A stretch of DNA of 60,796 bases from Gemmatimonadales bacterium. GTDB lineage: Bacteria; Gemmatimonadota; Gemmatimonadetes; Gemmatimonadales; GWC2-71-9. The stretch is from contig DASZPT010000089.1 of the NCBI GenBank assembly GCA_035549935.1, forward strand, positions 1 through 60,796, read 5' to 3'. Numbering within the stretch: the stretch's first letter is position 1; each line of letters begins with the position of its first letter. The notes beneath the pieces were generated by a model. That model was not told where the DNA came from and did not search any database. It saw only the letters and a list, made by a program, of their open reading frames with translations. The position numbers and the translations under genes are program-made. Below, one piece after another: positions 3,821 through 43,587 of this stretch.

Positions 3821-3904
3821 TTCTCTGGGGCGGTTAAGAAACCTTCGACAAGCCGGCTGAAGGCTAGCGGCTGGTCTGGGCTCAGGCAATGAGGCGACCA
3901 CGCC

Positions 3905-12246: not shown

Positions 12247-12321
12247 CTCCTGCCGGGCCGCCGCGGCCGGTGGCTCCCCCCGACATCGCTATCTTTCGCG
12301 CATCCCCTGCAAGGATCTCCC

Positions 12322-12879: not shown

Positions 12880-12888
12880 GGGCCATGC

Positions 12889-12922
12889 GTTCCGGGTTCC
12901 GGGTTCCGCGCTCGGAACCCGG
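12889..12922. repeat. GTTCCGN-heptamer hairpin element, copy 1
   Basis: Three GTTCCG units (12889-12908), loop CGCT, then CGGAACCCGG (12913-12922), giving a perfect 10-bp stem. Located between lemA and the M48 peptidase gene. Confidence 0.8.
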
Positions 12923-12933
12923 AGCCGTTCTCC

Positions 12934-13953
12934 ATGCCACAGCCCCCGGCCAATCTTTTCGAGCAGCAGGAAGCCAACCGCCGCCGTTCGACCTGGCTGG
13001 TGGCGGGCTTCGTCGTCTTCTTCGCCTGGGTGGGCTTCGGCGGCGACTGGGCCTGGTACCTCGCGACCGCCGGCGCCGCCGGCGGCCGCTCCGCGCACAC
13101 CGTCCCGGTGCTCGGCATCATCATGACCCTGGTGGCGGGCGGGATCTGCTGGTACTCCTGGAAGAAGGGATCCGAGCGGGTTCTGTGGGCCACCGGCGCC
13201 CGCGAGGTGGTGAGTCCGGCGAGTGACGCCGAACGGCAGCTGGTGAACGTGGTGGAGGAGATGGCGATCGCGTCGGGGCAACCCCGGCCGCGGATCTACA
13301 TCGTCCCCGACGCCGATCCCAACGCGTTCGCCACCGGCGTGGAGCCGGGACAGGCGGCGGTCGCCGTCACGGAAGGGCTGCTCGCGACCCTCAACCGGGA
13401 CGAACTCCAGGGAGTCATCGCGCACGAGATGGCCCACATCCGCAACCTCGACACCCGCCTCATGACCCTGCTCGCCGCGATGGTGGGCGCCATCGCGCTC
13501 ATGAGCGACGGGATGGGCCGGATGCTCCGCGGGGGATTCCGGGTCGGCGGTGGTGGCCGGCGCCGGGGCGGGAAGGACGGTACCCCGCTCGCGCTGATCG
13601 TCCTGGTGCTGTGGATCATCACCCTGATTCTCGCGCCGATCATCTCCCGCTTTCTCGCGATGGCGGTGAGCCGGAACCGGGAATTCCTGGCCGACGCCAC
13701 CGGCGCCCAGTTCACCCGCAACCCGATGGCGCTCGCCGCGGCGCTCGAGAAGCTCGATGCGGCGGGTCAGCCGACCCGGGCCATCACCCGGGGCGCGGCG
13801 CACCTCTGCATCGTGGATCCCTCGGCGAGCCATCTCTCCGCGCGGGAGGGGAAGCTGGCGGACTTCTTCGCCTCGCACCCGCCGATCCGGGTCCGGATCG
13901 CGCGGCTCCGGGGCATGGCGTACCAGGCGGCGAAGCAGGCGGGCGGGGCCTGA
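12934..13953 (+). CDS. M48-family (HtpX-like) zinc metallopeptidase
   Basis: HEMAHIRNLD (HExxH), membrane segments on both sides, and the typical pairing with lemA. Confidence 0.9.
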   Translation: MPQPPANLFEQQEANRRRSTWLVAGFVVFFAWVGFGGDWAWYLATAGAAGGRSAHTVPVLGIIMTLVAGGICWYSWKKGSERVLWATGAREVVSPASDAERQLVNVVEEMAIASGQPRPRIYIVPDADPNAFATGVEPGQAAVAVTEGLLATLNRDELQGVIAHEMAHIRNLDTRLMTLLAAMVGAIALMSDGMGRMLRGGFRVGGGGRRRGGKDGTPLALIVLVLWIITLILAPIISRFLAMAVSRNREFLADATGAQFTRNPMALAAALEKLDAAGQPTRAITRGAAHLCIVDPSASHLSAREGKLADFFASHPPIRVRIARLRGMAYQAAKQAGGA

Positions 13954-13959
13954 CCGGAC

Positions 13960-15474
13960 GTGCCGTCCTGGATCCTCGCGAGCGGCGTGGGGCTCCTGCT
14001 GCTGGTGGCGGCCGTCGCCCTGGTGCTCGCCACCCGCTCGGTGCTGCGCGCGCGGCTCGAGCAGTGGGCCAAGCGGGTGCTCCTCGAGTTCCGCGCCCGG
14101 ACCGACCGCTACAAGCTGGTCCACCGGGAGCGCATCCGCGAGGTGCTGCTCAACGATGCCCGGGTGGAGGCGGCGGTCCAGGACCACGCCCGGCTGCACG
14201 GCGCCGACCCGGCCCAGGTCCGTCGCCGGGTCAACGAATACGTCGACGAGATCGTCCCGTTCTTCAATGTTCTCTCCTACTACAAGCTGGGATACAACCT
14301 CTCCCGGCTGCTGATCAACCTCCTCTACAAGGCCTCGATCGAGTACCGGGACCAGGAGGCGCTGGACCGGATTCCGCGCCGCGACGTGGTGGTCTACCTG
14401 ATGAACCACCGGAGCAACGCGGACTACGTGGTGGTGGCCTACGTGCTCGCGCGGGTGGTGAGCATCAGCTACGCGGTGGGGGAGTGGGCGCGGGTCTGGC
14501 CGCTGGAGTTCGTGTTCAAGAGCTTCGGGAGCTATTTCATCCGCCGGCGGTATCGCGAGCCGCTCTATCACACCGTGCTGGAGCGCTATGTCCAGCTGGT
14601 CACCCGCAACGGCGTCACCCAGGGGATCTTTCCCGAGGGCGGCCTCACCCGCGACGGCGCGCTCCGCCCGGTCAAGATCGGCCTCCTCGACTACATCCTC
14701 GGCACGATCGAGGACCCGGCATTCGACCGCGACATCTGGCTCGTGCCGGTCGGGATCAACTACGACCGGGTCCTGGAGGACCGCTCCCTGATCCGCGAAC
14801 GGATCGTGGGGGGGCGCCGTCCGGGCCGCCTCGAGCAGTTCACCCAGGTCGCCGGTTTCGCGGGCTGGAACATGGCGCGGCTCCTCACCGGCCAGCTTCG
14901 ACGCTACGGCCGGGTGGCGGTGACGTTCGGGACGCCGATCTCGGTGCGGCAATGGCTCGCCGACCAGCCACCCGGCCTGCTCCTCCTGCCCAAGACCGAC
15001 CGGCTGCCGCACGTGCAGCGGCTGGCGGAGTACGCCCTGGAGCGGATCGGGGCGGTGATTCCCGTGACCCCGGTGCCACTGGCCTCGGCGGTACTCCTGT
15101 CGTTCGGGGGGAGTGTGGTGTCCCTGGCGCGGGTGCTGGAGCGGATGGACGAGGTGCGTGACCGGCTCGCGGACTCGAGCGCCAAGGTCGTGCGCCGGGA
15201 GCTGCCGGTGCGGGAAGTCTGGGAGCGCGCCTGGCTCATGCTCCGGATGCGGCGCCTGGTCGTGGCGGAGGGCGACGATCTGGTGATTCTCCCGCGGAGC
15301 CGGCCCCTGCTCGAGTACTACGCCAACTCCATCCGTCATCTCCTTCCGGAAGACGTCACGGTCGCCTGGTCACCCGCGGCGGAGCGGGACCCGACGCTCC
15401 CCCGGCTCGCGACGCGGGAGGAGATGGACATCCAGACCCGGGAGCATCCGGTGCTCCGGAAAGGACGGCCCTGA
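13960..15474 (+). CDS. Glycerolipid acyltransferase (PlsB/PlsC superfamily)
   Basis: GTG start; N-terminal TM; HX4D motif NHRSNADYV; FPEGGLTRDG block. Confidence 0.85.
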   Translation: MPSWILASGVGLLLLVAAVALVLATRSVLRARLEQWAKRVLLEFRARTDRYKLVHRERIREVLLNDARVEAAVQDHARLHGADPAQVRRRVNEYVDEIVPFFNVLSYYKLGYNLSRLLINLLYKASIEYRDQEALDRIPRRDVVVYLMNHRSNADYVVVAYVLARVVSISYAVGEWARVWPLEFVFKSFGSYFIRRRYREPLYHTVLERYVQLVTRNGVTQGIFPEGGLTRDGALRPVKIGLLDYILGTIEDPAFDRDIWLVPVGINYDRVLEDRSLIRERIVGGRRPGRLEQFTQVAGFAGWNMARLLTGQLRRYGRVAVTFGTPISVRQWLADQPPGLLLLPKTDRLPHVQRLAEYALERIGAVIPVTPVPLASAVLLSFGGSVVSLARVLERMDEVRDRLADSSAKVVRRELPVREVWERAWLMLRMRRLVVAEGDDLVILPRSRPLLEYYANSIRHLLPEDVTVAWSPAAERDPTLPRLATREEMDIQTREHPVLRKGRP

Positions 15475-15477
15475 CCG

Positions 15478-16188
15478 ATGCGCCTCCTGCTGCTCAGCAA
15501 CAGCCGCAACCCCGGCGAGGAGTACCTGGCCCACGCGGCCCCGGCGCTCCGGGACTTTCTCGGAGGAACGGGTGAGGCGCTGTTCGTGCCCTATGCCGGT
15601 GTCGCGGTCTCCCATGCCGACTACGCCGCGCGGGTGCGCGAGGCATTCGCCAAGCTCGGCGTGGCGATCCGGTCGGCGAGCGAGGTGACCGACCCGCTCG
15701 CGGCGGCGCGGACCGCCCCCGCCTTCGTGGTCGGGGGCGGCAACAGCTTTCAGCTGCTCCGCATGATGTACCAGACCGGGCTGCTGGAGCTGGTTCGCAC
15801 GCGGGTGGCCCAGGGCGCGCCCTACATCGGCTGGAGCGCCGGCTCCAACCTCGCCTGCCCCACCATCCGGACCACCAACGACATGCCGGTGGTGGAGCCG
15901 CCATCCCTCTCCGCCCTCGGCCTCGTGCCCTTCCAGATCAATCCGCACTACACCGACCGGGTGCTGGAGAACCACGGCGGCGAGACCCGGGACGAGCGGA
16001 TCGGGGAGTTCCTGATCCTCAACCCCACCGTCCGGGTACTGGGGCTCCGGGAGGGGAGCTGGCTCCGGCGCGAGGGCGGGCGTCTCGCCGCCGGGGGACC
16101 GCATACCCTGCGGCTGTTCCAGCAGGGACAGCCTCCCGCCGAGCTGGCCCCGACCGCCGACCTGGACTTCCTCCTCGGTCCCGGCTGA
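15478..16188 (+). CDS. pepE: Dipeptidase E (peptidase S51)
   Basis: MRLLLLSNSRNPGEEYLAHA..., GGGNSFQLL and GWSAGSN blocks typical of PepE. Confidence 0.85.
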   Translation: MRLLLLSNSRNPGEEYLAHAAPALRDFLGGTGEALFVPYAGVAVSHADYAARVREAFAKLGVAIRSASEVTDPLAAARTAPAFVVGGGNSFQLLRMMYQTGLLELVRTRVAQGAPYIGWSAGSNLACPTIRTTNDMPVVEPPSLSALGLVPFQINPHYTDRVLENHGGETRDERIGEFLILNPTVRVLGLREGSWLRREGGRLAAGGPHTLRLFQQGQPPAELAPTADLDFLLGPG

Positions 16189-16248
16189 TTCGGCCGGGCC
16201 GCAACCAAATCGGCCGTTTCCCTGTCATACCGGGGGGAGGCCATCCAC

Positions 16249-18672
16249 ATGCCGATTCGCCTGAACGACCTGAAAGAGGCCGGCCGCGCGCTGCTGCGCG
16301 CGCCCGGCATGAGCGGTTCCGCCATCCTCTGCCTGGTGCTCGGGCTCGGGGTCACCACCGCGATCTTCAGCGCGGTGAACCGGGCGCTGCTCCAGCGGCT
16401 CCCCTTCACGGACCCGGACCGCCTGGTCACGGTCTACCGGACCACACCGCACTTCGACACCGGTCCGCATGCCGCGCCCAACTTCCGTGATCTCGCGGCC
16501 GGCAGCCACCAGCTCCAGGGGATGGCCGCGGCGACGCCGATCTCCGCCCTCCTCACCTTCCCCGATGCGTCGGCCCAGGTGTCGGCCTACCGCGTGACGG
16601 CGAACCTCTTCCAGCTGCTCGGGGTGACGGCAGAGGCGGGGCGACTCCTGGTCCCGGCCGATGACGATCCGGGCGAGGCGCTGTCGGTGGTCCTGTCCGA
16701 CCGGCTCTGGCGGAGCCGCTTCGGCGCCGATCCGGCCGTGGTCGGAAGACCGATCCTGGTGGATGGGGCCGAGCGGCTGGTCGCAGGCGTCGCCCCACCC
16801 GACTTCCGCATCCCCAATGGCGGCCGGATGATCGACGCCGACCTCTGGCTGCCGATGCGCTTCAGCGACGGGGAGATCGCCGAGCGGGGCAGCAACTATC
16901 TCTCCGTCATCGGGCGGCTTGCCCCCGGCGCCACGGTGGCTACCGCGGATGCCGAGCTCAAGCGCCTCTTCGACGGGCTGACGCAGAACTTCCCCTTCCT
17001 CAAGGGCGAGTCGATCCGGGTGCTCTCGATGCAGACCGAGGGGGCCCGCACGGTTCGCGCGCCGCTGCTCCTCCTCTTCGGCGCGGTGGGCTTCGTGCTG
17101 CTCATCGCCTCCACCAACGTGGCGAGCCTGCTGCTCGCCCGCGGGGTACACCGCCGGCGGGAGCTGGCGGTCCGGGTGGCGCTGGGCGCGGACCGCTGGG
17201 CGGTGATGCGGCCGGTGCTGGCGGAGAGCCTGCTCCTCGCCGGGACCGGGATGCTGCTCGGGCTCGGGGTGGCGCTGGCAGGCGTCAGGACGATCGGAAA
17301 GCTGGCGGGGCAGTTCCTCCCGCAGGTGGCCGGCCTCACGATCGACCCGTGGGTGGTGGGATTCTCGGTGGGGCTCACCCTGGTCGTCGCGGTGCTGTGC
17401 GGCGCGGTGCCGGCGTGGCGGAGCAGCGCGGTGGATCCGCAGGAGGCGCTGTCGGGCGGGCGCGGGGGAGGCGCGAGCCGCAGGCAGCACCGCGCGCTCG
17501 AGCTCCTGGTGATCGGCGAGGTGGCGCTCTCCCTGGTGCTTCTGCTCGGCGCGGCGCTCGTGCTCAAGGGCTTCGCGGGGCTGCTCCGCCGGGAGCCGGG
17601 CTTCGACCCGGCGCCGCTGCTCACCCTGGATGTCACCATCTCGCCGGCGGCCTACCCGAAGGGGGACCAGGTGGCGCGCTTCCTCGAGCCGGCGCTCGAG
17701 GGGATCCGCGCGATTCCCGGCGTCACCGCGGCCGGCGCGATCTCGCTCATGCCCTACGACAACTGGGGCTGGAACTTCGGCATCCGGTACGAGGGACAGT
17801 CGTCCGACGGGGCCTCGCAGCGGCCGCTGGTGGAGCGGCGGCTGGTGACCCCCGGGTTTTTCGCGACCACCGGCCAGCGGCTGCTGAGCGGCCGCGCGCT
17901 CGCCGCGGGAGACGACGAGCGCCCCGAGGCGCCCGCCGTCGTGGTGGTGAACCAGGCGCTGGTGGACCGCGACTTCCCCAACCAGGACCCCATCGGCCGC
18001 CGCTTCTACGTGGGTGACGAGAGCTTCGCGACGATCGTGGGAGTCGTGACCAACATCCGGAACTTCGGCCCGGTCGAGGCGCCGAGGCCGGAGGTCTACT
18101 GGAACTACCGGCAGGCGGGGGACGGGAGCAGTGGCTTCCCGATCATCGTGCGGGTGGGTCGTGGTGACCCGAACGCGGTGGCCCGCGCGGTCGAGGCCGC
18201 GATTCGCGCGGTCGATCCCGGCGCGGCGGTGAGCAAGGTGCGGCCGATGACGCAGGTGATCAGCGACAGCGTTGGCCGTCCCCGCTTCTACCTCTCGCTG
18301 CTCGGGCTCTTCGCCGGGGTCGCGCTGGTGCTCTCGATGGCGGGGCTCTACGGAGTGCTGAGCTACTCGGTGGCGCAGCGGACCCGCGAGATCGGGGTCC
18401 GGACCGCGCTCGGCAGCACCCCGGCCCAGACGGTAGGCCTGATGGCCCGGCAGGGACTCGGGCTGGTAGGCGCGGGGCTCGTGGCGGGGCTCCTCGGCGG
18501 GGCGGGGCTCACGCGGCTCCTGGGGAGCCTGCTCTACGGGGTGAGCCCGCTCGACTGGCCCACCTGGGCCGTGGCGACGGCGGCGCTGGCGCTGGCCGGC
18601 GTGCTCGCGGCAATGGTACCGGCCTGGCGGGCCACCCGGGTCGACCCCATCGTGGCGATGCGCACCGAGTAG
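16249..18672 (+). CDS. ADOP-family duplicated FtsX/MacB-type ABC transporter permease
   Basis: 807 aa. Two MacB_PCD-like periplasmic domains and two FtsX 4-TM modules (e.g. ...RTREIGVRTALGSTPAQ...). Confidence 0.9.
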   Translation: MPIRLNDLKEAGRALLRAPGMSGSAILCLVLGLGVTTAIFSAVNRALLQRLPFTDPDRLVTVYRTTPHFDTGPHAAPNFRDLAAGSHQLQGMAAATPISALLTFPDASAQVSAYRVTANLFQLLGVTAEAGRLLVPADDDPGEALSVVLSDRLWRSRFGADPAVVGRPILVDGAERLVAGVAPPDFRIPNGGRMIDADLWLPMRFSDGEIAERGSNYLSVIGRLAPGATVATADAELKRLFDGLTQNFPFLKGESIRVLSMQTEGARTVRAPLLLLFGAVGFVLLIASTNVASLLLARGVHRRRELAVRVALGADRWAVMRPVLAESLLLAGTGMLLGLGVALAGVRTIGKLAGQFLPQVAGLTIDPWVVGFSVGLTLVVAVLCGAVPAWRSSAVDPQEALSGGRGGGASRRQHRALELLVIGEVALSLVLLLGAALVLKGFAGLLRREPGFDPAPLLTLDVTISPAAYPKGDQVARFLEPALEGIRAIPGVTAAGAISLMPYDNWGWNFGIRYEGQSSDGASQRPLVERRLVTPGFFATTGQRLLSGRALAAGDDERPEAPAVVVVNQALVDRDFPNQDPIGRRFYVGDESFATIVGVVTNIRNFGPVEAPRPEVYWNYRQAGDGSSGFPIIVRVGRGDPNAVARAVEAAIRAVDPGAAVSKVRPMTQVISDSVGRPRFYLSLLGLFAGVALVLSMAGLYGVLSYSVAQRTREIGVRTALGSTPAQTVGLMARQGLGLVGAGLVAGLLGGAGLTRLLGSLLYGVSPLDWPTWAVATAALALAGVLAAMVPAWRATRVDPIVAMRTE

Positions 18673-18678: not shown

Positions 18679-19722
18679 TCAGCCGCGCAGCGCGCCGAGC
18701 AGGTCCCCGACGAACGTCCCGGGATCGAAGGGCAGGGCCACGACGTGGTCCGCGCCGGCGGCGCGGGCCCGGCTTCCGTCACCCGGCACCAGGGCCACCA
18801 GGGTGTAGCGCCGGCCCGGCGCGGGGCGGAAGCCGCCGAGGGGATCGGTGCCCTGCGCGGCGCTGCCCGCGACCAGCACCAACTGCACGCCCAGTCCCGC
18901 GGCCCGGGCGTGCAGTTCCTCGACGCTCGCCATCCGCTCCACCTGGAACCCGGCGTGGGTCAGCAGCATCCCCACCACGCGGGCGATATCGTCATCCGGA
19001 AACCAGAGCAGGGCGTCGCCCAGCTGCACCGACAGCGGCTGGCTCCGGCGGGAGAGGTCGATCATCGGCACGCCCTCGAGATACTCGGTGGTGCGGGTGT
19101 CCTCGAGGGTCGTGAGCCGGGTGAGGATGTCCCGGATGCGGCCCAGCGCCTCGCGGATCCCGTTCACCGAGGCGCGCTGGTCGTCGCTGAGCCGGCTGCC
19201 GAGGAGGAGCTCCACCTCCGCGAAGGCGGCCATCAGCGGGTTGTTGATCGTGTGGTGCAGCGTGACATTGAGCTGGCCGATGGCCGCGAGGCGCTCGGCG
19301 TGCACCAGGTCGCGTTCCGCCGCGGCGAGGGCCTCCCCCAGCGCCCGGTGGCGGCGCACCCGCTCGATGACCTCGGGGAGGAGACTCGGGAGCGAGCCGT
19401 CCTTGATCACGTAGTCGTCGGCGCCGGCGCGGAGGGCGCGCACCGCGAGGGCCTCGTCGCCGTGGGCGGTGACCAGGATGACCGACGGCTGGGCGGCGGT
19501 GGCATGGAGCGCGGGGAGGAGGTCGAGGCCGGTGGTGTCGGGAAGCTGGTGATCGAGCAGCACGATGTCGAACCCGGCGGCGCGCTCGAGCGCGGCGGCG
19601 CCGGTCCCGACCAGGGTGGTCTCGACGATGCCGGCGTCGCGGAGGACCGAGATGACGAGGCGGCCGAAGTCCCGGTCGTCGTCGACGATCAGGACGCGGA
19701 CCTTCAGCGGTTCATGCGGCAC
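18679..19722 (-). CDS. Receiver - DHp (HisKA-like H-box) - C-terminal pseudo-receiver protein lacking an ATPase domain
   Basis: GTG start at 19722. REC domain: KVRVLIVDDD...IVLLDHQLPDTTG...VTAHGD...DYVIK. H-box: ERLAAIGQLNVTLHHTINNPL. No N/G1/G2 boxes. The C-terminal 120 aa is receiver-like, but LVLVAGSA replaces the phospho-Asp context. Confidence 0.8.
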   Translation of the reverse strand: MPHEPLKVRVLIVDDDRDFGRLVISVLRDAGIVETTLVGTGAAALERAAGFDIVLLDHQLPDTTGLDLLPALHATAAQPSVILVTAHGDEALAVRALRAGADDYVIKDGSLPSLLPEVIERVRRHRALGEALAAAERDLVHAERLAAIGQLNVTLHHTINNPLMAAFAEVELLLGSRLSDDQRASVNGIREALGRIRDILTRLTTLEDTRTTEYLEGVPMIDLSRRSQPLSVQLGDALLWFPDDDIARVVGMLLTHAGFQVERMASVEELHARAAGLGVQLVLVAGSAAQGTDPLGGFRPAPGRRYTLVALVPGDGSRARAAGADHVVALPFDPGTFVGDLLGALRG

Positions 19723-21277
19723 GGACTGGCTCCGGGTGTTGCTGGAATCCCTGGCGCGCAAATTTCTCCCATCCCTGCTTGCCGCGCCACGCGTCGTACA
19801 GACCGCGCAGGCGCCAGTAGAGGGTGAGCCAGCGCCAGAAGACATTCTCCAGCACCGCATACCAGAGGAGGATCAGGACGTCGCGGCTCCGGTCGAACGG
19901 GAGCAGGCCCCGCTGCAGCCGGTCGGTGAGACCGAACTCGAACCGCCAGGCGCCCACCAGCACGGCGAAGATGTTGACCAGGATCCCCCAGCCCACCGAG
20001 GCGAGCAGGAACGCGCCGAGATAGGTCCAGTCGATCACCGGGAGGTGGAACACGGCGCCGAGCAGGAGGAAGGCGAGGACGAAACAATACCCCGCCGCCT
20101 CGATCATCGGCCCGTAGTACTCGAAGAGCCAGAAGGTCGGGAGCGCGAACATCCCGATCCGCCCGTAGCGCGGATTGAACAGCATCGTCCGGTGGTAGAA
20201 GAGCGATTCGCGCAACCCGCGATACCACCGCCCCCGCTGCTTGCGGAGGGAGTCGAGCCGCTCGGGCACCTCGGTCCAGGCCACCGGGTGCGGCAGGAAA
20301 GCGATCCGCCGGTCGCGCATCTTGTCCCGTACGAAGCGGTGCAGCCGGACGACGATCTCCATGTCCTCGCAGACCGTGGCCGCCCGCCCGCCGATGTACT
20401 CCTCCACCAGCCGGTGCTGGACCAGGGGGGTGAGGTACCCGCCCGCGCGGATCAGGGTCTCCTTCTCGAACACGGCGAAGACCCCGGAGAGAATCAGGAT
20501 CGAGTCGAGCCGGTCGAGACCGGTGCGCCCGGTGGTGAAGCTCCGGAGATACTCCACCATCTGGAAGCGCGCCCAGGGGTGGCTGGGGAGGCGCACGCTC
20601 ACCACCTTCCCGTCCCGGATGGTGCAGCCGTTCGCGATGGCCACCTGGCCGCCCACCGCCACGATGCGGGGATCCTCCTGGATCATCCGCATGAGCTCCT
20701 TGAGGGCCCGCTGATCCAGGATGCTGTCGGCGTCGAGGCTCACCACGTAGGGCGCGGTGGAGGCGTTGATCCCGGCGTTGAGCGCATCGGCCTTCCCGCC
20801 GTTGTCCTTGTCGATCACCGTGAGACGGGACACCGTCGGCGGGAGACGGACGGTGGCCTCGTAGGTGGCGCGGACCCGCTCGGTCCCGATGGCGTCGCGG
20901 TAGGGCAGGTCGGTGCGGCGGAGCCGGAAGGCCTGCTTCAGGACCTCGAGGGTGCGGTCGGCGGAGCCGTCGTTCACCACCACGACCTCGAAGCGCGGGT
21001 AATCGCACTGGATGAGGTTGGTGATGCTGTCGACGATCGTGACCTCCTCGTTGTACGCCGGCACCACCATCGTGAGCGGCTTGGTATAGTCGCCCCCGTC
21101 GATGAGGTCGAGGTCCTCGACGAAATGGGCCGCCACCCGCCGGCGCACCTGCCGGGCCGAGAGCAGGATCAGCACCAGCATGTAGCCGTTGTAGCAGAGG
21201 AAGTAGGCCAGGAAGACCGGCTGGAGGATCAGGCCGATCGTCGAGACGAGGAGCGCCAGGGTCTGGCCGAAGCTCAT
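19712..21277 (-). CDS. Processive family-2 glycosyltransferase (membrane-embedded polysaccharide synthase, PgaC/NodC/BcsA class)
   Basis: Motifs VVVNDGSAD, LDADSIL, CEDMEIVVRL and RKQRGRWYRGL (Q-R-x-RW). 2 N-terminal and about 3-4 C-terminal TM helices. ATGA overlap with the upstream gene. Confidence 0.9.
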   Translation of the reverse strand: MSFGQTLALLVSTIGLILQPVFLAYFLCYNGYMLVLILLSARQVRRRVAAHFVEDLDLIDGGDYTKPLTMVVPAYNEEVTIVDSITNLIQCDYPRFEVVVVNDGSADRTLEVLKQAFRLRRTDLPYRDAIGTERVRATYEATVRLPPTVSRLTVIDKDNGGKADALNAGINASTAPYVVSLDADSILDQRALKELMRMIQEDPRIVAVGGQVAIANGCTIRDGKVVSVRLPSHPWARFQMVEYLRSFTTGRTGLDRLDSILILSGVFAVFEKETLIRAGGYLTPLVQHRLVEEYIGGRAATVCEDMEIVVRLHRFVRDKMRDRRIAFLPHPVAWTEVPERLDSLRKQRGRWYRGLRESLFYHRTMLFNPRYGRIGMFALPTFWLFEYYGPMIEAAGYCFVLAFLLLGAVFHLPVIDWTYLGAFLLASVGWGILVNIFAVLVGAWRFEFGLTDRLQRGLLPFDRSRDVLILLWYAVLENVFWRWLTLYWRLRGLYDAWRGKQGWEKFARQGFQQHPEPVRAA

Positions 21278-24200
21278 GAGGCGTGCCGGGGCTCGGCCGC
21301 GTCGCGCCAGCCGGCCAGCATGCGGCCCACCCGGTCCCGCACGCTCCAGACCGGGTCGCTCCGCATCACGGTCCACGCCGCCTCGTCTCCCACGATCGCG
21401 AGGGCCAGCGCGGCGGCCAGGCGCGACTCGGCCTCCCGGGCGGTGCGGGCCTGATCGCGGAGGGTCTCGACGGTGGTTGCGAGCCGGACCGCGGTCGCCG
21501 CCGCGGGGCGGGAGACGGTGAACGCATCCGGCATGCTCGTCCACTCGCCCCGGAGGATGCGGGTCACGAGCAGCGCGGCCCGGACCATCTCGTCGGGATC
21601 GAGGAAGAACGGCTCGAGGGCAAAGGCATCGGGCGCGTCGAGCCAGGCCCGGGCGATCTCCTGCCGCACCCCGGGATCGGGATCCCCCAGCATCGGGACG
21701 AGGTGGTCGAAGCTCCGCGCCGCGCGCCAGGCGCGGACCGTCGCGCGCCGCACCGCCACGTCGGGATCGGTGCCCAGGACGCCGAGCGCCTCCGGATCGA
21801 GCAGGTCGGGACGGGTGGCCCAGAGCGCCGCCACCGCTTCACGTACCGGCGCCGCGGTGCTCTGCGCCACGACCCCGAGGACCCGCCGCAGACCGGGGTG
21901 GTGCATGTACCGGGCGACCCTGGTGAGGAGGATCGCCTCCTGGCCGCTCAGGTCGAGCCCGAGCGCCAGGTCGAGGAAGGCGGGAAACGCCGCCTCCGCC
22001 TGCTGGGCCACCATCTGCAGCACCAGCGGGTCGTCTTCGGCCTTGAGAAGTCGCATCAGGCCCGGGAGCCCCTTCTCCGGGGCGATCCGGCTGAACAGGC
22101 CCACCGCGGCATGACGCACCGCCTTGTGGGGATCGGCCAGGGCGCGGCTTGCGGTCAGGTGCAGCTCGCTGGCGTCGAGCATCCCGCCCACCGCGGTGAG
22201 CGCGGCCGCGCGGACCTCGGGGCTGGGATCGCTCCGCACCACCGAGAGCAGGGCGCTCCGGCTCCGCTCCCCCTGGAAGGCGCGGAGCCCCGCCACCAGC
22301 CGGACCCGCTGTTCGGGCGACAGCACCCCGCGCATCCCTTCCGCCAGCGTCTGCTCCATCTGCTCCCGGGAACTGCTGCCGAGCGCTCGGAGCTCGATGT
22401 GGCGCGCCTCGCGGAGCCGGAGGCCGAGGAGCCGGTACTCCGAGTCGTTCTTGAGTCGCTCGCGGAGGACATCGCGCACCTCCGCCTCGTCCGCCATCTC
22501 CACCACCCGCGCCACGATGCTTTCCTGGTCGTAGGCGCCGAGGGCCAGCGTCGCGGCCGCGCGCACCGGGAGCTCCTCCTCGGGCCCGGCGGTGAGGCGA
22601 AGGAGCGCGACCTCCCCGCCCGCGGGCCGGAAGATGCCGCAGGCCAGGGCGGCGCGTTCCCGCACCTCGGCCGAGGGGTCGCTGCCGAGGAGCGCCAGGA
22701 TCCGCGGCGCGGCGCCCCGCTGGGCGAGCCGGACCAGGCCGTCTACCGCCCTGGCGCGCACCTGCGGGTCGGTGTCCCCCAGACCATCGGTGAGCAGCAG
22801 GGCCGCGCGCTCGTGCTGCAGATCGCCGAGGGCGGTCGCCGCCGCGGCCCGCACCTCCGGTGCCCGGTCGCGGAACAGCCCCTCGAGGAGCCGGAGCGGT
22901 TCGGCGGGGCGGAGGCCGCTCAGGGTCTTCACCACCGAGACGCGGCTCTCGACGTCGTCCCGCTCGAGGAGCCGGTCCACGATCCGGCTCAGGGCCGCGG
23001 GATCGAGCCGCGCGATGCTCTGGGTGATCGTGTCGCCCAGGTGCCGGTCCGCGTCGGCGAACGCCCGGAGCAGCGGCTCCACCGCCGACGCATCTCCCAC
23101 CGCGCCCAACGCCCGGGCCGCCGCGATGCGGACGCTCTCGTCGGTGTCGACGAGGAGCTCGACCAGGATCGGCGTGGCGCCGCGCCAGCCCGCTTCCTCG
23201 ACGCCGTCGGCCGCGGCGGCCCGGACCCGGGCGTCGGGATCGCGCAGGAGGAGCGCGTATTCCGCTTCGGCCCCGGTCGCGCGGACCAGGCCGAGGGCCC
23301 GGGCCGCGGCCGCGCGGACCAGCGGCTCCTGATCGGTGGTGCGCGGGCGGATGACGCCGGCCAGATCGCGCCCGCCGAGATTGCCGATCAGGTTCGTGGC
23401 GGCGGCCCGTACCCGCTCATCGGTGTCGCCCAGCGCCTCGAGGGCCACCGGCACCGCGTCCCTGGCGCCGATCGCGTGCAGCGCGTCGAGCGCCGTCGCC
23501 CGGATCCCCGGGTCGGTGTCCTTCTCGGCCCGCTCGATGAGCTCGGTGGCGAGGTCCTTCCGGTCGGCGTTCTGGATCGCGGCGACCACCGCCGCGCGGA
23601 CCGGGGCCGAGGGATGGTGCAGCAGTTCCGCGAGGAGCTCCCGGGCGCCGGCCACTCCGAACTTGGTGAGGAGTGCGTGGGTATCGAGCGTGGCCTCGCC
23701 CGCCTCGATGATGCGGACGATGCGGCTCGGGATGCCGAGGCGCTCGAGCGCCACGGCGGCGCGAATACGGATCTCGGGATCGGGGTCGTCGAGCGCCACG
23801 ATGAGCGGCGTCTCGGCGGTGGGGCCGATCTGTTCCAGCGCCTCGACGCTCCGCATGCGGACCCACCACGCCGGGTCGCCGAGGGCCCGGACCAGGCGGT
23901 CGATCACCTCGTTGCCGGGGAACTGGCCCAGGGCGCCGGCGATGCGGGCGCGGACGAAGGGGGCGGGGTCGGCGAGCAGGTGATCCAGCAGGTAGCTCAC
24001 CGCCCGCCGGTCGCCCAGCTTGCCGAGCGCGCCGGCGGCCTTGGCGCGGACCTCGTCGTCGACGTCCTTGAGGGCCGCGAGGAGAGCGGGGAAGGCGCGG
24101 GGAACCCGGAGCTCGCCCAGGATGTTGGCGGCCCAGGCCCGCGAGGGATGCCGGGTCGGCTCCGCCAGGAACGAGAGCATCGGGTCGACCACCGGCTCGC

Positions 24201-24789
24201 CGTGGCGCACCAGGATGTCGGCGATCCGGGGCGCGAGCCACACCTCTGCCTGTTTCAGCGCCCCGACGAGCGCGCCCACCGCCCGCGGGTCGGCGATCCG
24301 GGCCAGAGCGCGGAGCGCGATCTCCCGGACGTCGGCGTCCTCGGCCCGGGTGGCCTGCGCCGTTTCGAGCAGCACCGGGACCGCTTTCGCGTTCCCCACC
24401 CGGCCGAGCAGTTCGGCGGCGAAGGCGCGTTCGCGCCAGGTCCGCGCGCTCTGGAGGCGGTCGGCGTACTTCTCCACCAGGCCCAGGCGGTCGTAGGTAT
24501 CGAGCAGCCAGCCGGGCCGCTCGGTCACCTCCCGCGCCTGCTCCTCGAGAAGGGCCTCGATCGCCTCGAAGTCGCGAAGGGTGCGGAGCTGGTGGAGCTC
24601 GGGCTCGAGGAGGGCCCGCTCGCGCTGCGCCAGGCCCGCCACGAGGTCACGATAGATCCCCTTCCGCCGGGCGAGCGACTGCTCCACCCGGCCGAGCCAG
24701 GCGTTGTAGGCGAACCAGGCCATCACCGCCAGGAGCCCCAGGGCGATGACCACCGCGGAGAAGACCAGGATGAAGCGGAGCAGCGTCAC
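21274..24789 (-). CDS. Giant (1171 aa) membrane-anchored HEAT/PBS-lyase-like repeat protein
   Basis: One N-terminal TM (MTLLRFILVFSAVVIALGLLAVMAWFAY), then more than 25 recurring ~31-aa units of the type D.D..VR..AA.ALG.(L/I)G along the whole length. Confidence 0.85.
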   Translation of the reverse strand: MTLLRFILVFSAVVIALGLLAVMAWFAYNAWLGRVEQSLARRKGIYRDLVAGLAQRERALLEPELHQLRTLRDFEAIEALLEEQAREVTERPGWLLDTYDRLGLVEKYADRLQSARTWRERAFAAELLGRVGNAKAVPVLLETAQATRAEDADVREIALRALARIADPRAVGALVGALKQAEVWLAPRIADILVRHGEPVVDPMLSFLAEPTRHPSRAWAANILGELRVPRAFPALLAALKDVDDEVRAKAAGALGKLGDRRAVSYLLDHLLADPAPFVRARIAGALGQFPGNEVIDRLVRALGDPAWWVRMRSVEALEQIGPTAETPLIVALDDPDPEIRIRAAVALERLGIPSRIVRIIEAGEATLDTHALLTKFGVAGARELLAELLHHPSAPVRAAVVAAIQNADRKDLATELIERAEKDTDPGIRATALDALHAIGARDAVPVALEALGDTDERVRAAATNLIGNLGGRDLAGVIRPRTTDQEPLVRAAAARALGLVRATGAEAEYALLLRDPDARVRAAAADGVEEAGWRGATPILVELLVDTDESVRIAAARALGAVGDASAVEPLLRAFADADRHLGDTITQSIARLDPAALSRIVDRLLERDDVESRVSVVKTLSGLRPAEPLRLLEGLFRDRAPEVRAAAATALGDLQHERAALLLTDGLGDTDPQVRARAVDGLVRLAQRGAAPRILALLGSDPSAEVRERAALACGIFRPAGGEVALLRLTAGPEEELPVRAAATLALGAYDQESIVARVVEMADEAEVRDVLRERLKNDSEYRLLGLRLREARHIELRALGSSSREQMEQTLAEGMRGVLSPEQRVRLVAGLRAFQGERSRSALLSVVRSDPSPEVRAAALTAVGGMLDASELHLTASRALADPHKAVRHAAVGLFSRIAPEKGLPGLMRLLKAEDDPLVLQMVAQQAEAAFPAFLDLALGLDLSGQEAILLTRVARYMHHPGLRRVLGVVAQSTAAPVREAVAALWATRPDLLDPEALGVLGTDPDVAVRRATVRAWRAARSFDHLVPMLGDPDPGVRQEIARAWLDAPDAFALEPFFLDPDEMVRAALLVTRILRGEWTSMPDAFTVSRPAAATAVRLATTVETLRDQARTAREAESRLAAALALAIVGDEAAWTVMRSDPVWSVRDRVGRMLAGWRDAAEPRHAS

Positions 24790-25157
24790 CGTGTCCCCGT
24801 CAGGCGCTCCAGCATCTGCACCAGCCGGCTGATATCGACCGGCTTGGCCAGGAAGGCGTCGGCGCCGACCTCAGTGGCCCAGTACTGGTCGGCGGGCTGG
24901 TCCTTCGAGGTGCACATCACCACCGGGATCCCGGCCAGCGACGGGTCGCTCTTGAGCTGGCGGCAAGTCTGGAAGCCGTTGAGCCGGGGCATCATCACAT
25001 CCAGCACCACGGCGTCGGGCTTGTGGGCGCGCGCGGCCTCGAGACCCGACTCCCCGTCGGGGGCGGTCGCGACCCGCCACCCGGTGCTGCCGAGCATCCG
25101 CTCGAGCAGCCGGCGCTGATCGGGATCGTCTTCGATCACCAGGACGAGTTTGCCCAT
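24786..25157 (-). CDS. Single-domain CheY-like response regulator
   Basis: LVLVIEDD...AVVLDVMMPRLNG...MCTS...AFLAKP has all receiver signature positions. GTGA overlap with the HEAT gene. Confidence 0.9.
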   Translation of the reverse strand: MGKLVLVIEDDPDQRRLLERMLGSTGWRVATAPDGESGLEAARAHKPDAVVLDVMMPRLNGFQTCRQLKSDPSLAGIPVVMCTSKDQPADQYWATEVGADAFLAKPVDISRLVQMLERLTGTR

Positions 25158-25306
25158 GTTCGGATATCGGTCCGGATGGCCCGCGGCTTGAGACGGCCGC
25201 GGGCGGGGGTAGCCGAGTGGGCCAGGCGGCGAGTGGAGGCTCGTCTACTGGCCCACGGCACATGCAGGGTCCGTGATGCGGGACCGGCGGAAACGCCGGT
25301 CCTGCC

Positions 25307-26371
25307 TCAGGTGCGGGCGTCGTCCAGGAAGACCAGGGCCTGACGCCGCCGGACCGCCGTTTCCAGCGCCCGGTAGACCTCGGGATCGAGCACGCTGCTC
25401 GCCAGGTCGCGCATCCGTTCGACGGCGAACTCCGGCGGCATCTTTTCCTGATAGGGACGCGAGGTGGTGAGCGCGTCGTAGATCTCGGCGGCGGCGAGGA
25501 TCCGGGCGCCGAGGGGGATCGTCTCGCTCTTGAGCCCGTCGGGATACCCCTGCCCGTCCCAGCGCTCGTGGTGACTCCGCACGTAGCCGATGATGTCGCC
25601 CAGGTGCGCCAGCGGGGCGAGAATCTGCGATCCCACCGTCACGTGCTGCTTCACCTGCTCGTACTCGTCGGCGGTGAGCGGGCCTTCCTTGTTCAGGATC
25701 TCCTCGCGGATCCCGATCTTGCCGATGTCGTGGAGCCGCCCCGCCATGCGGACCTGCTCCACCTGTTCGTCGCCCAGCCCGAGCTCGCCGGCGATCAGCG
25801 CGGCGAGGTCGGCCACGCGGGTGGAGTGCCCGCGGAGGTACGGATCCTTGGCCTCCAGCGCGTTCACCAGCGCCTCGAGGGTCGCGACCGAGAGCCGCTC
25901 GAGCTTGGCCCGTTCCCGCTTGAGCTCGGCGGTACGGACGGCCACCTCTTCCTTGAGCCACTGGTTGAGGTTGGCCTGCTCGACGAGGCTGTCGCGCTTG
26001 CGGATGGCGCGGAGGATGGCGCGGGCGAGGTCGGCGAGATCGATGGGCTTGGTGAGATAGTCCATCGCGCCGCGCTGCATGCAGAGCGCCGCGGTGGTCG
26101 CGTCGTTCACCGCGGTGAGCATCAGGATCGCGACCGAGGGCTCCAGCTCCAGCACCTGCGGCACCAAGTCGATGCCGCTCTTGCCGGGCATGCGGACGTC
26201 GAGCAGAAGGACGGAGATCTTCTGGCGCTGCAGAATGCGGAGGGCCTCGTCGCCCGACGCCGCGGTCTGCACGTCGTATCCCTGCTGGGTGAGGAACTTC
26301 TTGAGGGCGTTGCGGATCGGCTCTTCGTCGTCGACGACGAGAAGGCTGATCGGCACATCGGCCAGCGGCAA
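25307..26371 (-). CDS. RpfG-type response regulator: REC plus HD-GYP domain (putative c-di-GMP phosphodiesterase)
   Basis: SLLVVDDE...LLLDVRMPGKSG...; HD-GYP signature GRLHDIGKIGI and SHHERWDGQGYPDGL. Confidence 0.9.
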   Translation of the reverse strand: MPLADVPISLLVVDDEEPIRNALKKFLTQQGYDVQTAASGDEALRILQRQKISVLLLDVRMPGKSGIDLVPQVLELEPSVAILMLTAVNDATTAALCMQRGAMDYLTKPIDLADLARAILRAIRKRDSLVEQANLNQWLKEEVAVRTAELKRERAKLERLSVATLEALVNALEAKDPYLRGHSTRVADLAALIAGELGLGDEQVEQVRMAGRLHDIGKIGIREEILNKEGPLTADEYEQVKQHVTVGSQILAPLAHLGDIIGYVRSHHERWDGQGYPDGLKSETIPLGARILAAAEIYDALTTSRPYQEKMPPEFAVERMRDLASSVLDPEVYRALETAVRRRQALVFLDDART

Positions 26372-27387: not shown

Positions 27388-27393
27388 GGGAGA

Positions 27394-27464
27394 GTTCCGG
27401 GTTCCGAGTTCCGGGTTCCGAGTTCCGCCGGGACCCGACTCGGAACTCGGAACTCGGAACCCGG
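27394..27464. repeat. GTTCCGN-heptamer hairpin element, copy 3 (largest)
   Basis: Five GTTCCG units (27394-27427), 13-nt loop, three CGGAAC units plus CCGG (27441-27464). Located between the zinc-ribbon gene stop and the Mqn gene start. Confidence 0.85.
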
Positions 27465-27473
27465 CACCGCTCG

Positions 27474-28175
27474 CTACGGAGCTGAGAGTTGCCGGCGGAG
27501 GTCGTCCAGCATCGCCTTGTGCTCCTGGTACTCGGGACGCTGCCGGGCGATCTGGGCATCGAAGTTGTCGAGGAAGGCCTTCCGGGCGCGCGCCTCGAGC
27601 GCGGCGTCCTTCTTCGCCTGGGCCACCTCGAGCCGGAGGAGATCGCCGAGGAGGTTCTTCGACGATTCCGCCTGGATCGTGTCGGCGAGGGCGAGGGCCT
27701 CGGGGTAGGCTCGCGTCAGGATGTAGATCGCCCCGGCATGGTAGCGGGCGTCGACATCCACCTGGTCCAGCATGCCGTAGGCCGAGATGGCCATGGGCGC
27801 GAAGCGCTGCGCGGTGGCGGTGTCGCCGGATTCCTGCGCGCTCATGATCCGGTCGTGCAGCCGGAGGAAGCGCTCCCGCGGCGTCATCTGGCTGATGTCG
27901 GGAGGCGCGCCCTGTGGCCTGGCCCCGGCGGCGGTGGCCGGGCCAGCGTTCCCGGCGTTGGCCATGTCGGGGCCGGTCGCGGGCGCCGGCGCGCGGTTCA
28001 CGAAGTACACGATCGAGGCGATGGCGATCGCCACCACCGCCCAGGCGGCGATCCAGATGCCGCGGTCGGAGCCGGCGCCGACCGCCCGCCCGCACCGGTG
28101 GCAGTACCGGGCACCGGGCGTGAGCGAGGCGTGGCAGGAGGGGCAGGCGGTGGCGCCGGGGGTCGGGTCGGTCAT
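27474..28175 (-). CDS. Zinc-ribbon membrane protein with a helical (TPR-like) C-terminal domain
   Basis: MTDPTPGATACPSCHASLTPGARYCHRCG (CxxC...CxxC), TM WIAAWAVVAIAIASIVYFV, then a helical domain. Confidence 0.7.
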   Translation of the reverse strand: MTDPTPGATACPSCHASLTPGARYCHRCGRAVGAGSDRGIWIAAWAVVAIAIASIVYFVNRAPAPATGPDMANAGNAGPATAAGARPQGAPPDISQMTPRERFLRLHDRIMSAQESGDTATAQRFAPMAISAYGMLDQVDVDARYHAGAIYILTRAYPEALALADTIQAESSKNLLGDLLRLEVAQAKKDAALEARARKAFLDNFDAQIARQRPEYQEHKAMLDDLRRQLSAP

Positions 28176-28290
28176 GGCGGGCGGGAATCTAGACGGGGGG
28201 ATGAGTTCGCGGAATGTTCCGCGGGCGAGGGCCCGGGGAGCGCGTGAGGCGGCGCGCCCTTCCCCCTCATTTCGCCCCTGATTAGCCTCC

Positions 28291-28584
28291 ATGCAACCCG
28301 GAGGATCGATGGCCCAGCCACAGCAGCCACCGCCGGTTCCCCTGCCCGATGCGCCCGCGGCCCGTCACCTGGGCGACCTGGCCCGCAGCCAGACCCGCTG
28401 GAGCGTCTACCTCGAGACCCGGATGGCCGGGACCCTGGCGCAGGGCAGGCTGCACTTCCTGGAAGGGAGCCGCCACAAGAGTACCGGGTGGATCTTCCGG
28501 GAGTGGACCGAACGCGAAATCCACGACCGGTTCAACGAGTTCAGTCCCGTCGAGCTCTGGAAGATTCTCGAAAGCCTAGGGTAA
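28291..28584 (+). CDS. Small hypothetical protein upstream of glnA
   Basis: 97-aa ORF with a balanced C-terminal half (WIFREWTEREIHDRFNEFSPVELWKILESLG). The start is uncertain (ATG 28291 or 28309). Confidence 0.5.
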   Translation: MQPGGSMAQPQQPPPVPLPDAPAARHLGDLARSQTRWSVYLETRMAGTLAQGRLHFLEGSRHKSTGWIFREWTEREIHDRFNEFSPVELWKILESLG

Positions 28585-40327: not shown

Positions 40328-40446
40328 GGGTCGTTGGCGAACGACACAAGACTAGTCGCGGGGCGCGCGGCGGCCAAACGCCGGCGTCCCGTCCCACTCC
40401 CGGAGAACCGCTCCTGACGACCAGCCCGATCGACGCGCGACACGAG

Positions 40447-41880: not shown

Positions 41881-41881
41881 C

Positions 41882-43505: not shown

Positions 43506-43587
43506 GGGACACGGGCCTCGGGGTGGACGAACTGGGCAACAACTTGGCCGGTTCGGGGCGAATCCGCCACGCCGCGCCCGGCCCGGC

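Follow-up and report, generated by a model that had tools for sequence, protein, structure and literature searches.

Background

Synthase-dependent glycan production in bacteria is commonly taught as a short list of systems, i.e. those for cellulose, poly-N-acetylglucosamine (PNAG), alginate and Pel, together with a few like Nfr and Bgs, and their post-translational control is largely ascribed to cyclic di-GMP (c-di-GMP). We analysed a stretch of 60,796 nt from a Gemmatimonadales bacterium (contig DASZPT010000089.1; hereafter the window), which carries a module composed of a putative processive family 2 glycosyltransferase (GT2), a giant HEAT-repeat protein, a CheY-like single-domain receiver (REC) and a second receiver-containing protein (gene 5), with a gene for a REC-HD-GYP protein upstream. 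The evidence points to another large family of synthases, in which a cytoplasmic HEAT solenoid is a conserved co-subunit and direct coupling to two-component receivers is frequent.

The closest described systems each resemble the window module in part. In PgaC-PgaD and IcaA-IcaD the GT2 likewise consists of an N-terminal transmembrane (TM) part, a GT-A domain and a C-terminal TM bundle, and likewise needs a partner that is encoded adjacently. That partner is, however, a small membrane protein with two TM segments, whereas the partner in the window and its relatives would be a HEAT solenoid in the cytoplasm, 330-1200 aa long and anchored by a TM segment; moreover, unlike in the Pga system, no PgaB-like deacetylase or PgaA-like porin was found among the 28 neighbouring or larger open reading frames (ORFs) of the window that were scanned. 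The BcsA-BcsB pair has the processive GT2 fold in common with the window GT2 (Foldseek E-values of 2e-12 to 1e-9), is synthase-dependent and is gated post-translationally, as we propose for the window module, and, like BcsA, which is accompanied by BcsG, some relatives of the window GT2 are paired with a transferase of the sulfatase family. The window GT2 is nevertheless without PilZ domain or BcsB, and its regulatory module would instead be a HEAT solenoid, separate or fused N-terminally, plus a receiver. Class I hyaluronan synthases (HAS; Chlorella virus HAS and XlHAS1) provide the closest solved structure to the model of the window GT2 and are similar in size and TM layout, but they share 14-17% identity with it and act alone, without a dedicated partner. 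There are differences of detail in the catalytic motifs as well (ED...RLH in the window GT2, GDDR in HAS), and we take the ED...RLH and QRxRWxRG motifs to be closer to those of PgaC and BcsA than to those of HAS and the chitin synthases.

Precedents can also be found for the regulatory side. In eukaryotes a cytoplasmic alpha-solenoid binds a membrane GT2 and activates or positions it, namely in yeast Chs3-Chs4/Skt5 and in plant CesA-CSI1; the repeats of Chs4/Skt5 and CSI1 (Sel1 and armadillo, respectively) are unrelated to HEAT, no phospho-receiver control is known there and we claim no homology. In the Che7 system of Myxococcus xanthus the receiver CheY7 binds the PBS-lyase-type HEAT protein Cpc7 (PMC11514114, citing Darnell et al. 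2014), which is a precedent for a pair of single-domain receiver and HEAT protein, whereas a pair of this kind in the family studied here is suggested by co-localisation and by a HEAT-GT2-REC fusion. Neither a membrane anchor nor pairing with a glycosyltransferase is reported for Cpc7. NfrB of E. coli (PMC8669469) and BgsA of Sinorhizobium (PMC5567048) are GT2s under non-PilZ c-di-GMP control. Both are processive and are regulated post-translationally by a local signalling enzyme encoded nearby, as proposed for the window; their control is exerted, however, through an MshEN domain or a c-di-GMP site at the C-terminus, their partner is NfrA or BgsB, and neither a HEAT partner nor a receiver is involved. 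No description of a HEAT partner for a bacterial GT2 synthase was found in the searchable full-text literature (subscription literature being outside the scope of the search).

Results and discussion

Conservation of the HEAT-GT2 pair

An exhaustive HMMER search recovered 976 cluster representatives (E <= 1e-30). A scan of species-representative genomes, which took in at most 600 candidate stretches and at most 80 loci, yielded 80 loci, and the frequencies given below are those of samples, not of a census. Sixty family loci, with GT2s at 28-80% identity, were set against 21 control loci with more distant GT2s (25-31%). All-against-all clustering of same-strand ORFs brought out a partner family of about 310-480 aa that is encoded upstream of the GT2, and a hidden Markov model (HMM) was built from 43 of these partners. 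The family was defined by a GT2 of at least 31% identity together with a partner-HMM-positive ORF that ends at the GT2 start or is fused to the GT2.

The partner HMM matches the ORF directly adjoining the GT2 start in 52 of the 60 family loci and an ORF somewhere in the locus in 56, as compared to none of the 21 controls. Of the four family loci without a match, two lie on contigs that break off at the GT2, one is a fusion that went undetected and one is an outlier at 28% identity. ORF calling was mechanical in the high-G+C loci, and the absence of a partner from three of them in the count of direct adjacency (L005, L008 and L055) is an artefact. Carriers include Bacillota (Bacillus, Paenibacillus, Kurthia, Sporosarcina), Bacteroidota (Flavobacterium, Bacteroides, Chitinophaga), Terriglobia (Acidobacteriota), Actinomycetota, Myxococcota, Verrucomicrobiota, Fibrobacterota, Pseudomonadota and other Gemmatimonadota, and the family, as judged from these sequence matches, is spread over more than 10 phyla. 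The same pair is found in the haloarchaeon Halolamina pelagica (L042, 6616-9227; partner HMM E-value of 1.9e-17), which means that the pair is either of ancient origin or was transferred between the domains.

In addition, many GT2 representatives are about 930-1010 aa long and have the GT2 in their C-terminal half. Pfam recognises HEAT repeats in the N-terminal half of two of these (P0144 and P0153) and none in a third (P0161); the named members of P0153 are metagenome-assembled genomes of Eubacteriales/Clostridiales, and another representative (P0220) comes from Heliophilum fasciatum. Further fusions have the order HEAT-GT2-TPR (P0162, 1389 aa), HEAT-GT2-REC (P0213, 1140 aa) and, in Sphingobacterium, GT2-sulfatase/LtaS-like (P0232 and P0238, 1140-1141 aa).

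Of the 52 listed partners 51 have a hydrophobic segment, which in most is N-terminal and followed by basic residues. Because of this arrangement (positive-inside rule) the HEAT solenoid is predicted to be cytoplasmic (N-out, C-in), and the fusion topology, which reads TM-HEAT-TM-TM-GT, is consistent with it. Neither Pfam nor NCBIfam holds a model specific to the partner, and the Bacillus partner has no Pfam match at all.

An earlier note on this DNA, made from the sequence by eye, had proposed that the HEAT protein acts as a cytoplasmic scaffold or regulatory co-subunit of the GT2. The counts in family and control loci, the natural fusions and the predicted topology all speak for a dedicated, cytoplasmic partner, and the adjacency on which the proposal was based turns out to be conserved well outside this genome. 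The system is, on the other hand, not particular to this locus, as the pair is widespread across the family. We conclude that GT2 and HEAT protein very probably constitute a functional unit.

The HEAT protein of the window

The HEAT protein measures 1171 aa (Pfam HEAT_2, 314 bits in 11 stretches). It has a single N-terminal TM segment, which hydropathy places at aa 6-24 and which we set at about aa 6-28 (nt 24706-24774), followed by the basic residues R34, R41, R42 and K43. The partner HMM, which has 348 positions and was derived from short partners, is collinear with aa 2-326 (146 bits, E = 4e-46). The protein as a whole scores 348 bits against this HMM, and in aa 327-1171 the matches are at the level of generic repeats only; the sequence matches of this part in the PDB are alphaRep proteins. 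A 1199-aa orthologue from Myxococcota (L082) is collinear with the window protein over 1095 aa, starting at the TM segment, at 32% identity. The 845-residue extension is a lineage-specific trait that Gemmatimonadales and Myxococcota have in common, and it is a candidate docking platform for signalling proteins.

Collinear orthologues of 1163 aa (in L001, a related Gemmatimonadales locus) and 1199 aa rule out that the ORF is an artefact or consists of two genes. The earlier note was therefore right to place a single-pass protein of this size in the partner position, and the 'giant HEAT protein' is real; it is, however, better described as a common partner module of about 330 aa with a lineage-specific extension.

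The synthase

The GT2 matches the Pfam models Glyco_tranf_2_3, Glycos_transf_2 and Chitin_synth_2. It carries the motifs NDGS (aa 102-105), DAD (182-184), ED (304-305) and QRGRW (347-351), and the residues D103, D182-x-D184, E304-D305 and Q347-R-x-R-W351 do not vary within two alignments of the family (A1 and A3; 35-88% identity). A C-terminal tail, GKxxWxKFxRxGF (aa 499-511), is conserved as well, with W503 invariant and R508 nearly so throughout the family. In the AlphaFold2 (AF2) model (pLDDT 81.4, pTM 0.82) helices are found at the N-terminus (aa 3-51) and in the C-terminal part (369-387, 389-410, 417-449 and 464-497), several of which are hydrophobic by hydropathy, and the model's hydrophobic helices, at least five in number, would fit a membrane channel. 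The best Foldseek match of the model in the PDB is Chlorella virus HAS (E = 4.7e-15, TM-score 0.55-0.59, about 510 columns), with further matches to XlHAS1, BcsA, yeast Chs1 and plant CesA (E-values of 5e-15 to 1e-8 for the five together). Motifs and fold therefore bear out the earlier assignment to the class of membrane-embedded processive synthases.

Among the curated families of NCBIfam, TIGR03937 (PgaC/IcaA) scores best, at 119.1 bits against a cutoff of 422.3; relatives of the GT2 from Bacillus and Flavobacterium reach 124-130 bits. TIGR03030 (BcsA/CelA) scores 41.5 bits against a cutoff of 699 and NodC 38 against 550. With NCBIfam scores this far under the cutoffs, an identity as PgaC, BcsA, NodC or XrtG-associated GT2 was ruled out, and since no curated equivalog cutoff is reached the GT2 is not assigned to a known family with other partners. 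Pfam finds no PilZ domain in it, neither BcsB nor PgaD/IcaD is encoded next to it (the neighbours being the REC, HEAT, gene 5, MqnA-like and MacB/FtsX genes), and the scanned ORFs contain no match to a deacetylase or to PgaA, in agreement with the earlier remark that no PilZ domain and no partner of the BcsB or PgaABD type can be recognised. Sequence and model together suggest a member of the processive-synthase class that belongs to no named family and whose product is not legible from the sequence.

The GT2 is further characterised by a 17-residue insertion after the residues GGY (aa 283-300, nt 20378-20431), which is common to the GT2s of Gemmatimonadales and Myxococcota that have a giant HEAT partner. 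The insertion is also present in a few other close representatives (P0129, P0132, P0135, P0136 and P0146), and is lacking from most family members with a short partner.

Sister operons in Myxococcota

The closest outgroup of the GT2 is found in Myxococcota (P0125 clade; 41-45% identity, with the same insertion), and four loci were compared. The gene order is TPR - GT2 - HisKA/HATPase kinase - REC - HEAT (1199 aa) - PA14 in L082, and TPR - GT2 - kinase - REC - HEAT (1212 aa) in L085. The Labilithrix locus (L083) reads GT2 - kinase - REC - HEAT, with the HEAT gene cut by the contig end and a Che-like cluster upstream, and the Kofleriaceae locus (L084) reads HisKA-HATPase-REC-GGDEF - GT2 - REC - HEAT (1319 aa) - TPR. 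GT2, REC and giant HEAT protein are thus present in all four loci, and a kinase gene follows the GT2 in three. The REC of the GT2-kinase-REC-HEAT operon is 43% identical to the CheY-like receiver of the window. The recurrence of the same three parts, in another gene order and in another phylum, is strong evidence at the sequence level that they are functionally coupled.

Receivers and gene 5

The active site of the CheY-like receiver is intact (D10/D11, D53, T83 and K105), and all three receivers of the module, counting that of the REC-HD-GYP protein, have retained the acidic pair along with the acceptor Asp, Thr and Lys residues. Among the 48 loci with enough flanking sequence, a REC gene is found immediately upstream of the partner in 19 (single-domain in 11 of these) and at most 3 kb upstream in 26.

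In gene 5 Pfam recognises a Response_reg domain (81.6 bits) and, just under the gathering cutoff of 26.9, HisKA (26.1 bits), the HisKA-like hairpin containing H157 in the sequence LHHTINNPL. No HATPase_c domain is found by Pfam, so that gene 5 is not a kinase and cannot autophosphorylate from ATP. In the AF2 model (pLDDT 79) the REC is followed by helices 111-174 and 180-205 and by a C-terminal (beta-alpha)5 domain, and the top Foldseek match is PleD, which has a REC-REC' pair. Pfam returns no match for the C-terminal domain by itself; hhalign aligns it to a profile of the N-terminal REC with a probability of 89.8% (E = 1.8e-6), the position of the acceptor Asp being missing. Model and alignment together lead to its designation as a pseudo-receiver. 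The reading of gene 5 as receiver, dimerisation and histidine phosphotransfer (DHp) domain and pseudo-receiver, and the absence of an ATP-binding kinase from a module with three receiver proteins, had both been noticed earlier and stand.

Among 26 orthologues of gene 5 the residues D57, K107, H157 and N160-N161-P162-L163 are invariant, whereas the residue at H+1 varies (T/A/S/N/E) and is no fixed acid; the length is kept at 347-356 aa among the orthologues sampled, the named members of which are Gemmatimonadales. In two-component proteins an acid at H+1 is used for kinase activity and a T or N at H+4 for phosphatase activity. An invariant N161 combined with a variable H+1 position fits a role in phosphotransfer or as a phosphatase. 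With regard to the CheY-like receiver, gene 5 is a candidate either for phosphotransfer or for dephosphorylation by a receiver-regulated activity. Since it lacks a HATPase domain and does not detectably resemble the kinase of L082, it was rejected as a kinase, and likewise as an orthologue of the Myxococcota kinase that has degenerated.

The HD-GYP gene and c-di-GMP

The REC-HD-GYP protein has its receiver Asp at aa 58 (LLLDVRMP) and the motifs HDIGK (aa 214-218) and HHERWDGQGYP (aa 267-277), and the NosR-family response regulator/phosphodiesterase model of NCBIfam scores 235 bits, under its cutoff of 400. Judged by these motifs it is a probable c-di-GMP phosphodiesterase that looks catalytically competent. 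Its synteny with the module is confined to three Gemmatimonadales loci of the 60 (L001, L002 and L044), in which mqnA is equally syntenic, so that the linkage is indistinguishable from vertical synteny.

The 149-nt gap between the REC-HD-GYP and CheY genes (25158-25306) folds into three stable hairpins (minimum free energy -77.3 kcal/mol, z = -4.83), and none of 200 shuffled sequences folds as well. The hairpin nearest to the REC-HD-GYP stop codon is a probable terminator or processing site, and L001 has a hairpin of different sequence at the same place; this positional conservation suggests that the HD-GYP gene is on a transcript separate from the module. No intergenic region has an Rfam match, riboswitches included, apart from sub-threshold noise of the microRNA and snoRNA type, by which a c-di-GMP or other riboswitch is ruled out.

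Elsewhere in the family GGDEF domains occur in 5 of the 60 sampled loci, among them two Bacillales loci (L004 and L012) in which an Hpt-REC-GGDEF gene lies immediately upstream of the partner. None of the five module proteins has a PilZ, MshEN or other known c-di-GMP-binding domain according to Pfam. A c-di-GMP layer is plausible, although recurrent in a lineage-specific manner instead of being a general rule, and we consider it somewhat unlikely overall. Of the gating by phosphorelay and/or c-di-GMP that had been suggested for the module, the receiver part is favoured by the enrichment of REC genes and by the HEAT-GT2-REC fusion, whereas the c-di-GMP part is weakened by a synteny that is limited to one order and shared with mqnA.

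Export and possible fate of the polymer

In Bacteroidota (L047, 9424-13076; L050; L021) the pair is followed by genes for an LtaS-like sulfatase-TPR protein and for an outer-membrane beta-barrel of the TPR-YaiO type, the YaiO-type family being found in 15 loci. These genes suggest that the polymer is exported and carries phospho-substituents, and that the YaiO barrels, a poorly understood family, play a role here. In Myxococcota a conserved TPR protein is present in all four loci and a PA14 protein in two (L082 and L083). In Firmicutes the pair is flanked by proteins of about 740-1090 aa without Pfam or NCBIfam match (L004, 9349-12609; L017, 9408-12575; L006, 1552-6823), which form a family conserved in 10 loci and are possibly a monoderm accessory subunit.

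The family as a whole looks, from its gene content, like a system for a secreted and sometimes modified polymer, and there is a reasonable probability that the product is indeed secreted. The window, however, encodes no homologue of the TPR, TPR-YaiO, PA14, sulfatase-TPR or large accessory proteins of the relatives, and weak similarity to sulfatases was seen only inside an unrelated cluster of the Wzx/Wzy type (39113-49415; Table 1), which is not linked to the HEAT-GT2 module. Because no obvious route across the outer membrane is encoded, the Gemmatimonadales module is not self-contained. The earlier note had called it so; the 60.8-kb window has neither a kinase nor a TPR, beta-barrel or PA14 gene, all of which are found in relatives.

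Proposed mechanism and its alternatives

We propose that the module is a processive synthase which has a cytoplasmic solenoid as its obligate co-subunit and is switched by phosphorylation of a receiver, a reading which, taken as a whole, we regard as reasonably probable. The GT2 would polymerise a beta-linked hexose or N-acetylhexosamine polymer and translocate it across the inner membrane, and the membrane-anchored HEAT solenoid would be its obligate co-subunit. Within the latter, the first 330 residues or so may represent an ancestral juxtamembrane module that contacts the synthase, and the 845 extra residues could offer a docking surface for signalling proteins. The phosphorylated CheY-like receiver would bind the HEAT partner or the synthase and thus switch synthesis post-translationally. 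Its phosphorylation would be set by gene 5, either through a relay from an unlinked kinase via H157 or through a receiver-controlled phosphatase activity, and in Myxococcota by the kinase; a further layer, of c-di-GMP control, may come from the REC-HD-GYP enzyme encoded upstream. On the direct gating of the synthase by a receiver, considered separately, the balance tips slightly in favour.

A number of observations weigh against this proposal. The partner alignment contains no strongly conserved column, and no interface motif could be defined from it. REC linkage is seen in about half of the loci and is not universal, and the REC-like domain of the HEAT-GT2-REC fusion is atypical in its active site, where a Q aligns with the Asp. 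The DHp proteins of Gemmatimonadales and Myxococcota are not homologous, for which reason the signalling input appears not to be conserved in detail between the two phyla. Finally, no kinase is encoded in the window, no outer-membrane export component that would suit a diderm host can be recognised in it, and TPR, beta-barrel and PA14 export genes are absent from the close Gemmatimonadales relatives too.

The role of c-di-GMP could be larger than that of an added layer. If it were the proximal switch, the GT2 (e.g. by its basic tail, aa 499-511) or the HEAT protein would be the receptor, and the receivers would do no more than tune the local c-di-GMP level, by way of REC-HD-GYP in the window and of REC-GGDEF in other lineages. 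A REC-HD-GYP gene with intact HD and GYP motifs directly upstream, the GGDEF-containing genes directly upstream of the partner in the two Bacillales loci and of the GT2 in Kofleriaceae, the non-PilZ sites of BgsA (PMC5567048) and NfrB (PMC8669469), and the invariant W503 and nearly invariant R508 of the tail are all compatible with such a scheme. We nevertheless consider it unlikely, given that GGDEF is found in few loci and HD-GYP in three Gemmatimonadales loci only, where mqnA is kept too, that a hairpin, probably a terminator, lies between the HD-GYP gene and the operon, that Pfam detects no known c-di-GMP-binding domain in the five proteins, and that configurations with REC only are far commoner. 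The lack of export genes in the window and its close relatives would also fit a short or cell-retained glycan, be it an oligosaccharide of the NodC type, a glucan of the periplasm or a glycan linked to lipid or protein, with the HEAT protein as a scaffold for localisation or assembly and not as an allosteric gate. Standalone HAS, to which the fold is matched, and NodC need, as is generally known, no export partners, and the Wzx/Wzy-type cluster could supply the organism's exopolysaccharide. The sulfatase-TPR and YaiO-barrel genes of Bacteroidota, the TPR and PA14 genes of Myxococcota and the GT2-sulfatase and HEAT-GT2-TPR fusions are, however, hallmarks of secreted, modified polymers, and make a retained product rather improbable. 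Very improbable indeed is that the adjacency reflects nothing but inherited synteny or a shared regulon, with HEAT protein, REC and GT2 acting independently: HEAT repeats are generic protein-binding modules and the partner shows little residue conservation, but the adjacency is kept in more than 10 phyla and in one archaeon, also where the gene order has been shuffled, the pair was fused into a single polypeptide several times, and the partner is found in nearly all family loci and in none of the controls.

The proposal of a receiver-switched synthase-solenoid complex can be extended to a very widespread and hitherto unrecognised class of synthase-dependent glycan machines, in more than 10 bacterial phyla and haloarchaea, in which a GT2 is obligatorily paired with or fused to a solenoid, a phospho-receiver replaces c-di-GMP and PilZ as the direct allosteric switch, and the solenoid has expanded to about 1200 aa in Gemmatimonadales and Myxococcota. 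We put this forward tentatively, as its chances are somewhat below even. If true, it would add a new type of accessory subunit and phosphorylation-based gating to the bacterial glycan synthases, would explain what thousands of genes beside 'PgaC-like' GT2s do that now bear no annotation but 'HEAT repeat' or 'hypothetical', and would show bacteria to have their own counterpart of the solenoids that activate chitin and cellulose synthases in eukaryotes; tractable carriers exist in Flavobacterium, Sphingobacterium and Bacillus/Priestia.

Layout and boundaries of the locus

The G+C content of the window is about 70%, and long spurious ORFs are therefore common. The five ORFs of the module have clean translations and a G+C content at third codon positions (GC3) of 0.84-0.92 in their frames, and thus carry the codon-position signature of real genes. 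The CheY stop and HEAT GTG start overlap as GTGA (24786-24789), the HEAT stop and GT2 ATG start as ATGA (21274-21277), and gene 5 begins with a GTG inside the end of the GT2 gene, the two sharing 11 nt (19712-19722). The coordinates and junctions of these four coupled genes, the REC-HD-GYP gene 149 nt upstream on the same strand, and the domain calls for all five proteins (by Pfam, and for the C-terminal domain of gene 5 by AF2 and hhalign) are as had been described before.

Table 1. Positions of the module genes, their subdivisions and the Wzx/Wzy-type cluster in the window.
Feature	Position	Strand	Evidence
REC-HD-GYP response regulator, 354 aa, TTG start	25307..26371	-	Response_reg 103 bits, HD_5 139.9 bits
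GC-rich hairpin with a stem of 9 bp and a loop of 4 nt; begins 5 nt past the HD-GYP stop	25281..25302	-	RNA fold
CheY-like single-domain receiver, 123 aa	24786..25157	-	Pfam Response_reg 102 bits
HEAT protein, whole gene	21274..24789	-	Pfam HEAT_2
HEAT protein, conserved partner module (aa 1-326): TM, basic stretch, linker, first PBS-type repeats	23812..24789	-	partner HMM
HEAT protein, lineage-specific extension (aa 327-1171), PBS-lyase/alphaRep-type repeats	21274..23811	-	repeat-level HMM matches
Processive-type GT2 synthase, 521 aa, membrane-embedded (predicted)	19712..21277	-	Pfam, invariant motifs, AF2, Foldseek
Gene 5, REC-DHp-pseudoreceiver, 347 aa, no ATP-binding domain	18679..19722	-	Pfam, AF2, Foldseek, hhalign
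Wzx/Wzy cluster, GT4 genes	39113-40351, 45090-46364		
Wzx/Wzy cluster, Polysacc_synt_3 flippase	40264-41880		
Wzx/Wzy cluster, methyltransferase	42765-43871		
Wzx/Wzy cluster, sulfatase-family genes	43588-45171, 46229-48337		
Wzx/Wzy cluster, GDSL-like gene	48192-49415		

The module is preceded by an MqnA-like menaquinone gene on the same strand and followed by a convergent MacB/FtsX permease gene, neither of which is related to glycan synthesis. In L001, the GT2 of which is 76% identical, the order is MqnA, REC-HD, REC, HEAT (1163 aa), GT2 (521 aa) and REC-HisKA (347 aa), with start/stop overlaps at the same junctions (five genes called). The block is also present in L002 and L044, for which the ORF calls are incomplete. 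As L001 has M48/LemA after the block instead of FtsX, the module ends at gene 5, and the MacB/FtsX permease, not being at the same position there, was ruled out as its exporter. The LemA/M48 pair that directly abuts the operon in L001 is found in the window at 12247-13953, separated from the operon by a GPAT-like acyltransferase, an S51 peptidase and the MacB/FtsX permease; this arrangement (12247-18672) is a local insertion or rearrangement.

A scan for sigma-70 promoters and T-tract terminators gave no promoter and one terminator-like site, against about 1.3 expected. An antisense ORF of 1278 aa (21283-25119, plus strand) spans the whole HEAT gene; its GC3 is 0.82, compared to 0.92 in the HEAT frame, and it is almost certainly non-coding. 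Beside the mqnA-like gene, just downstream of the stop of a zinc-ribbon ORF (27474-28292, minus strand), a long hairpin (27391-27470) with sub-threshold matches to several microRNA precursor models is probably a terminator. A gene for a methyl-accepting chemotaxis protein is located at 2129-4177 on the minus strand.

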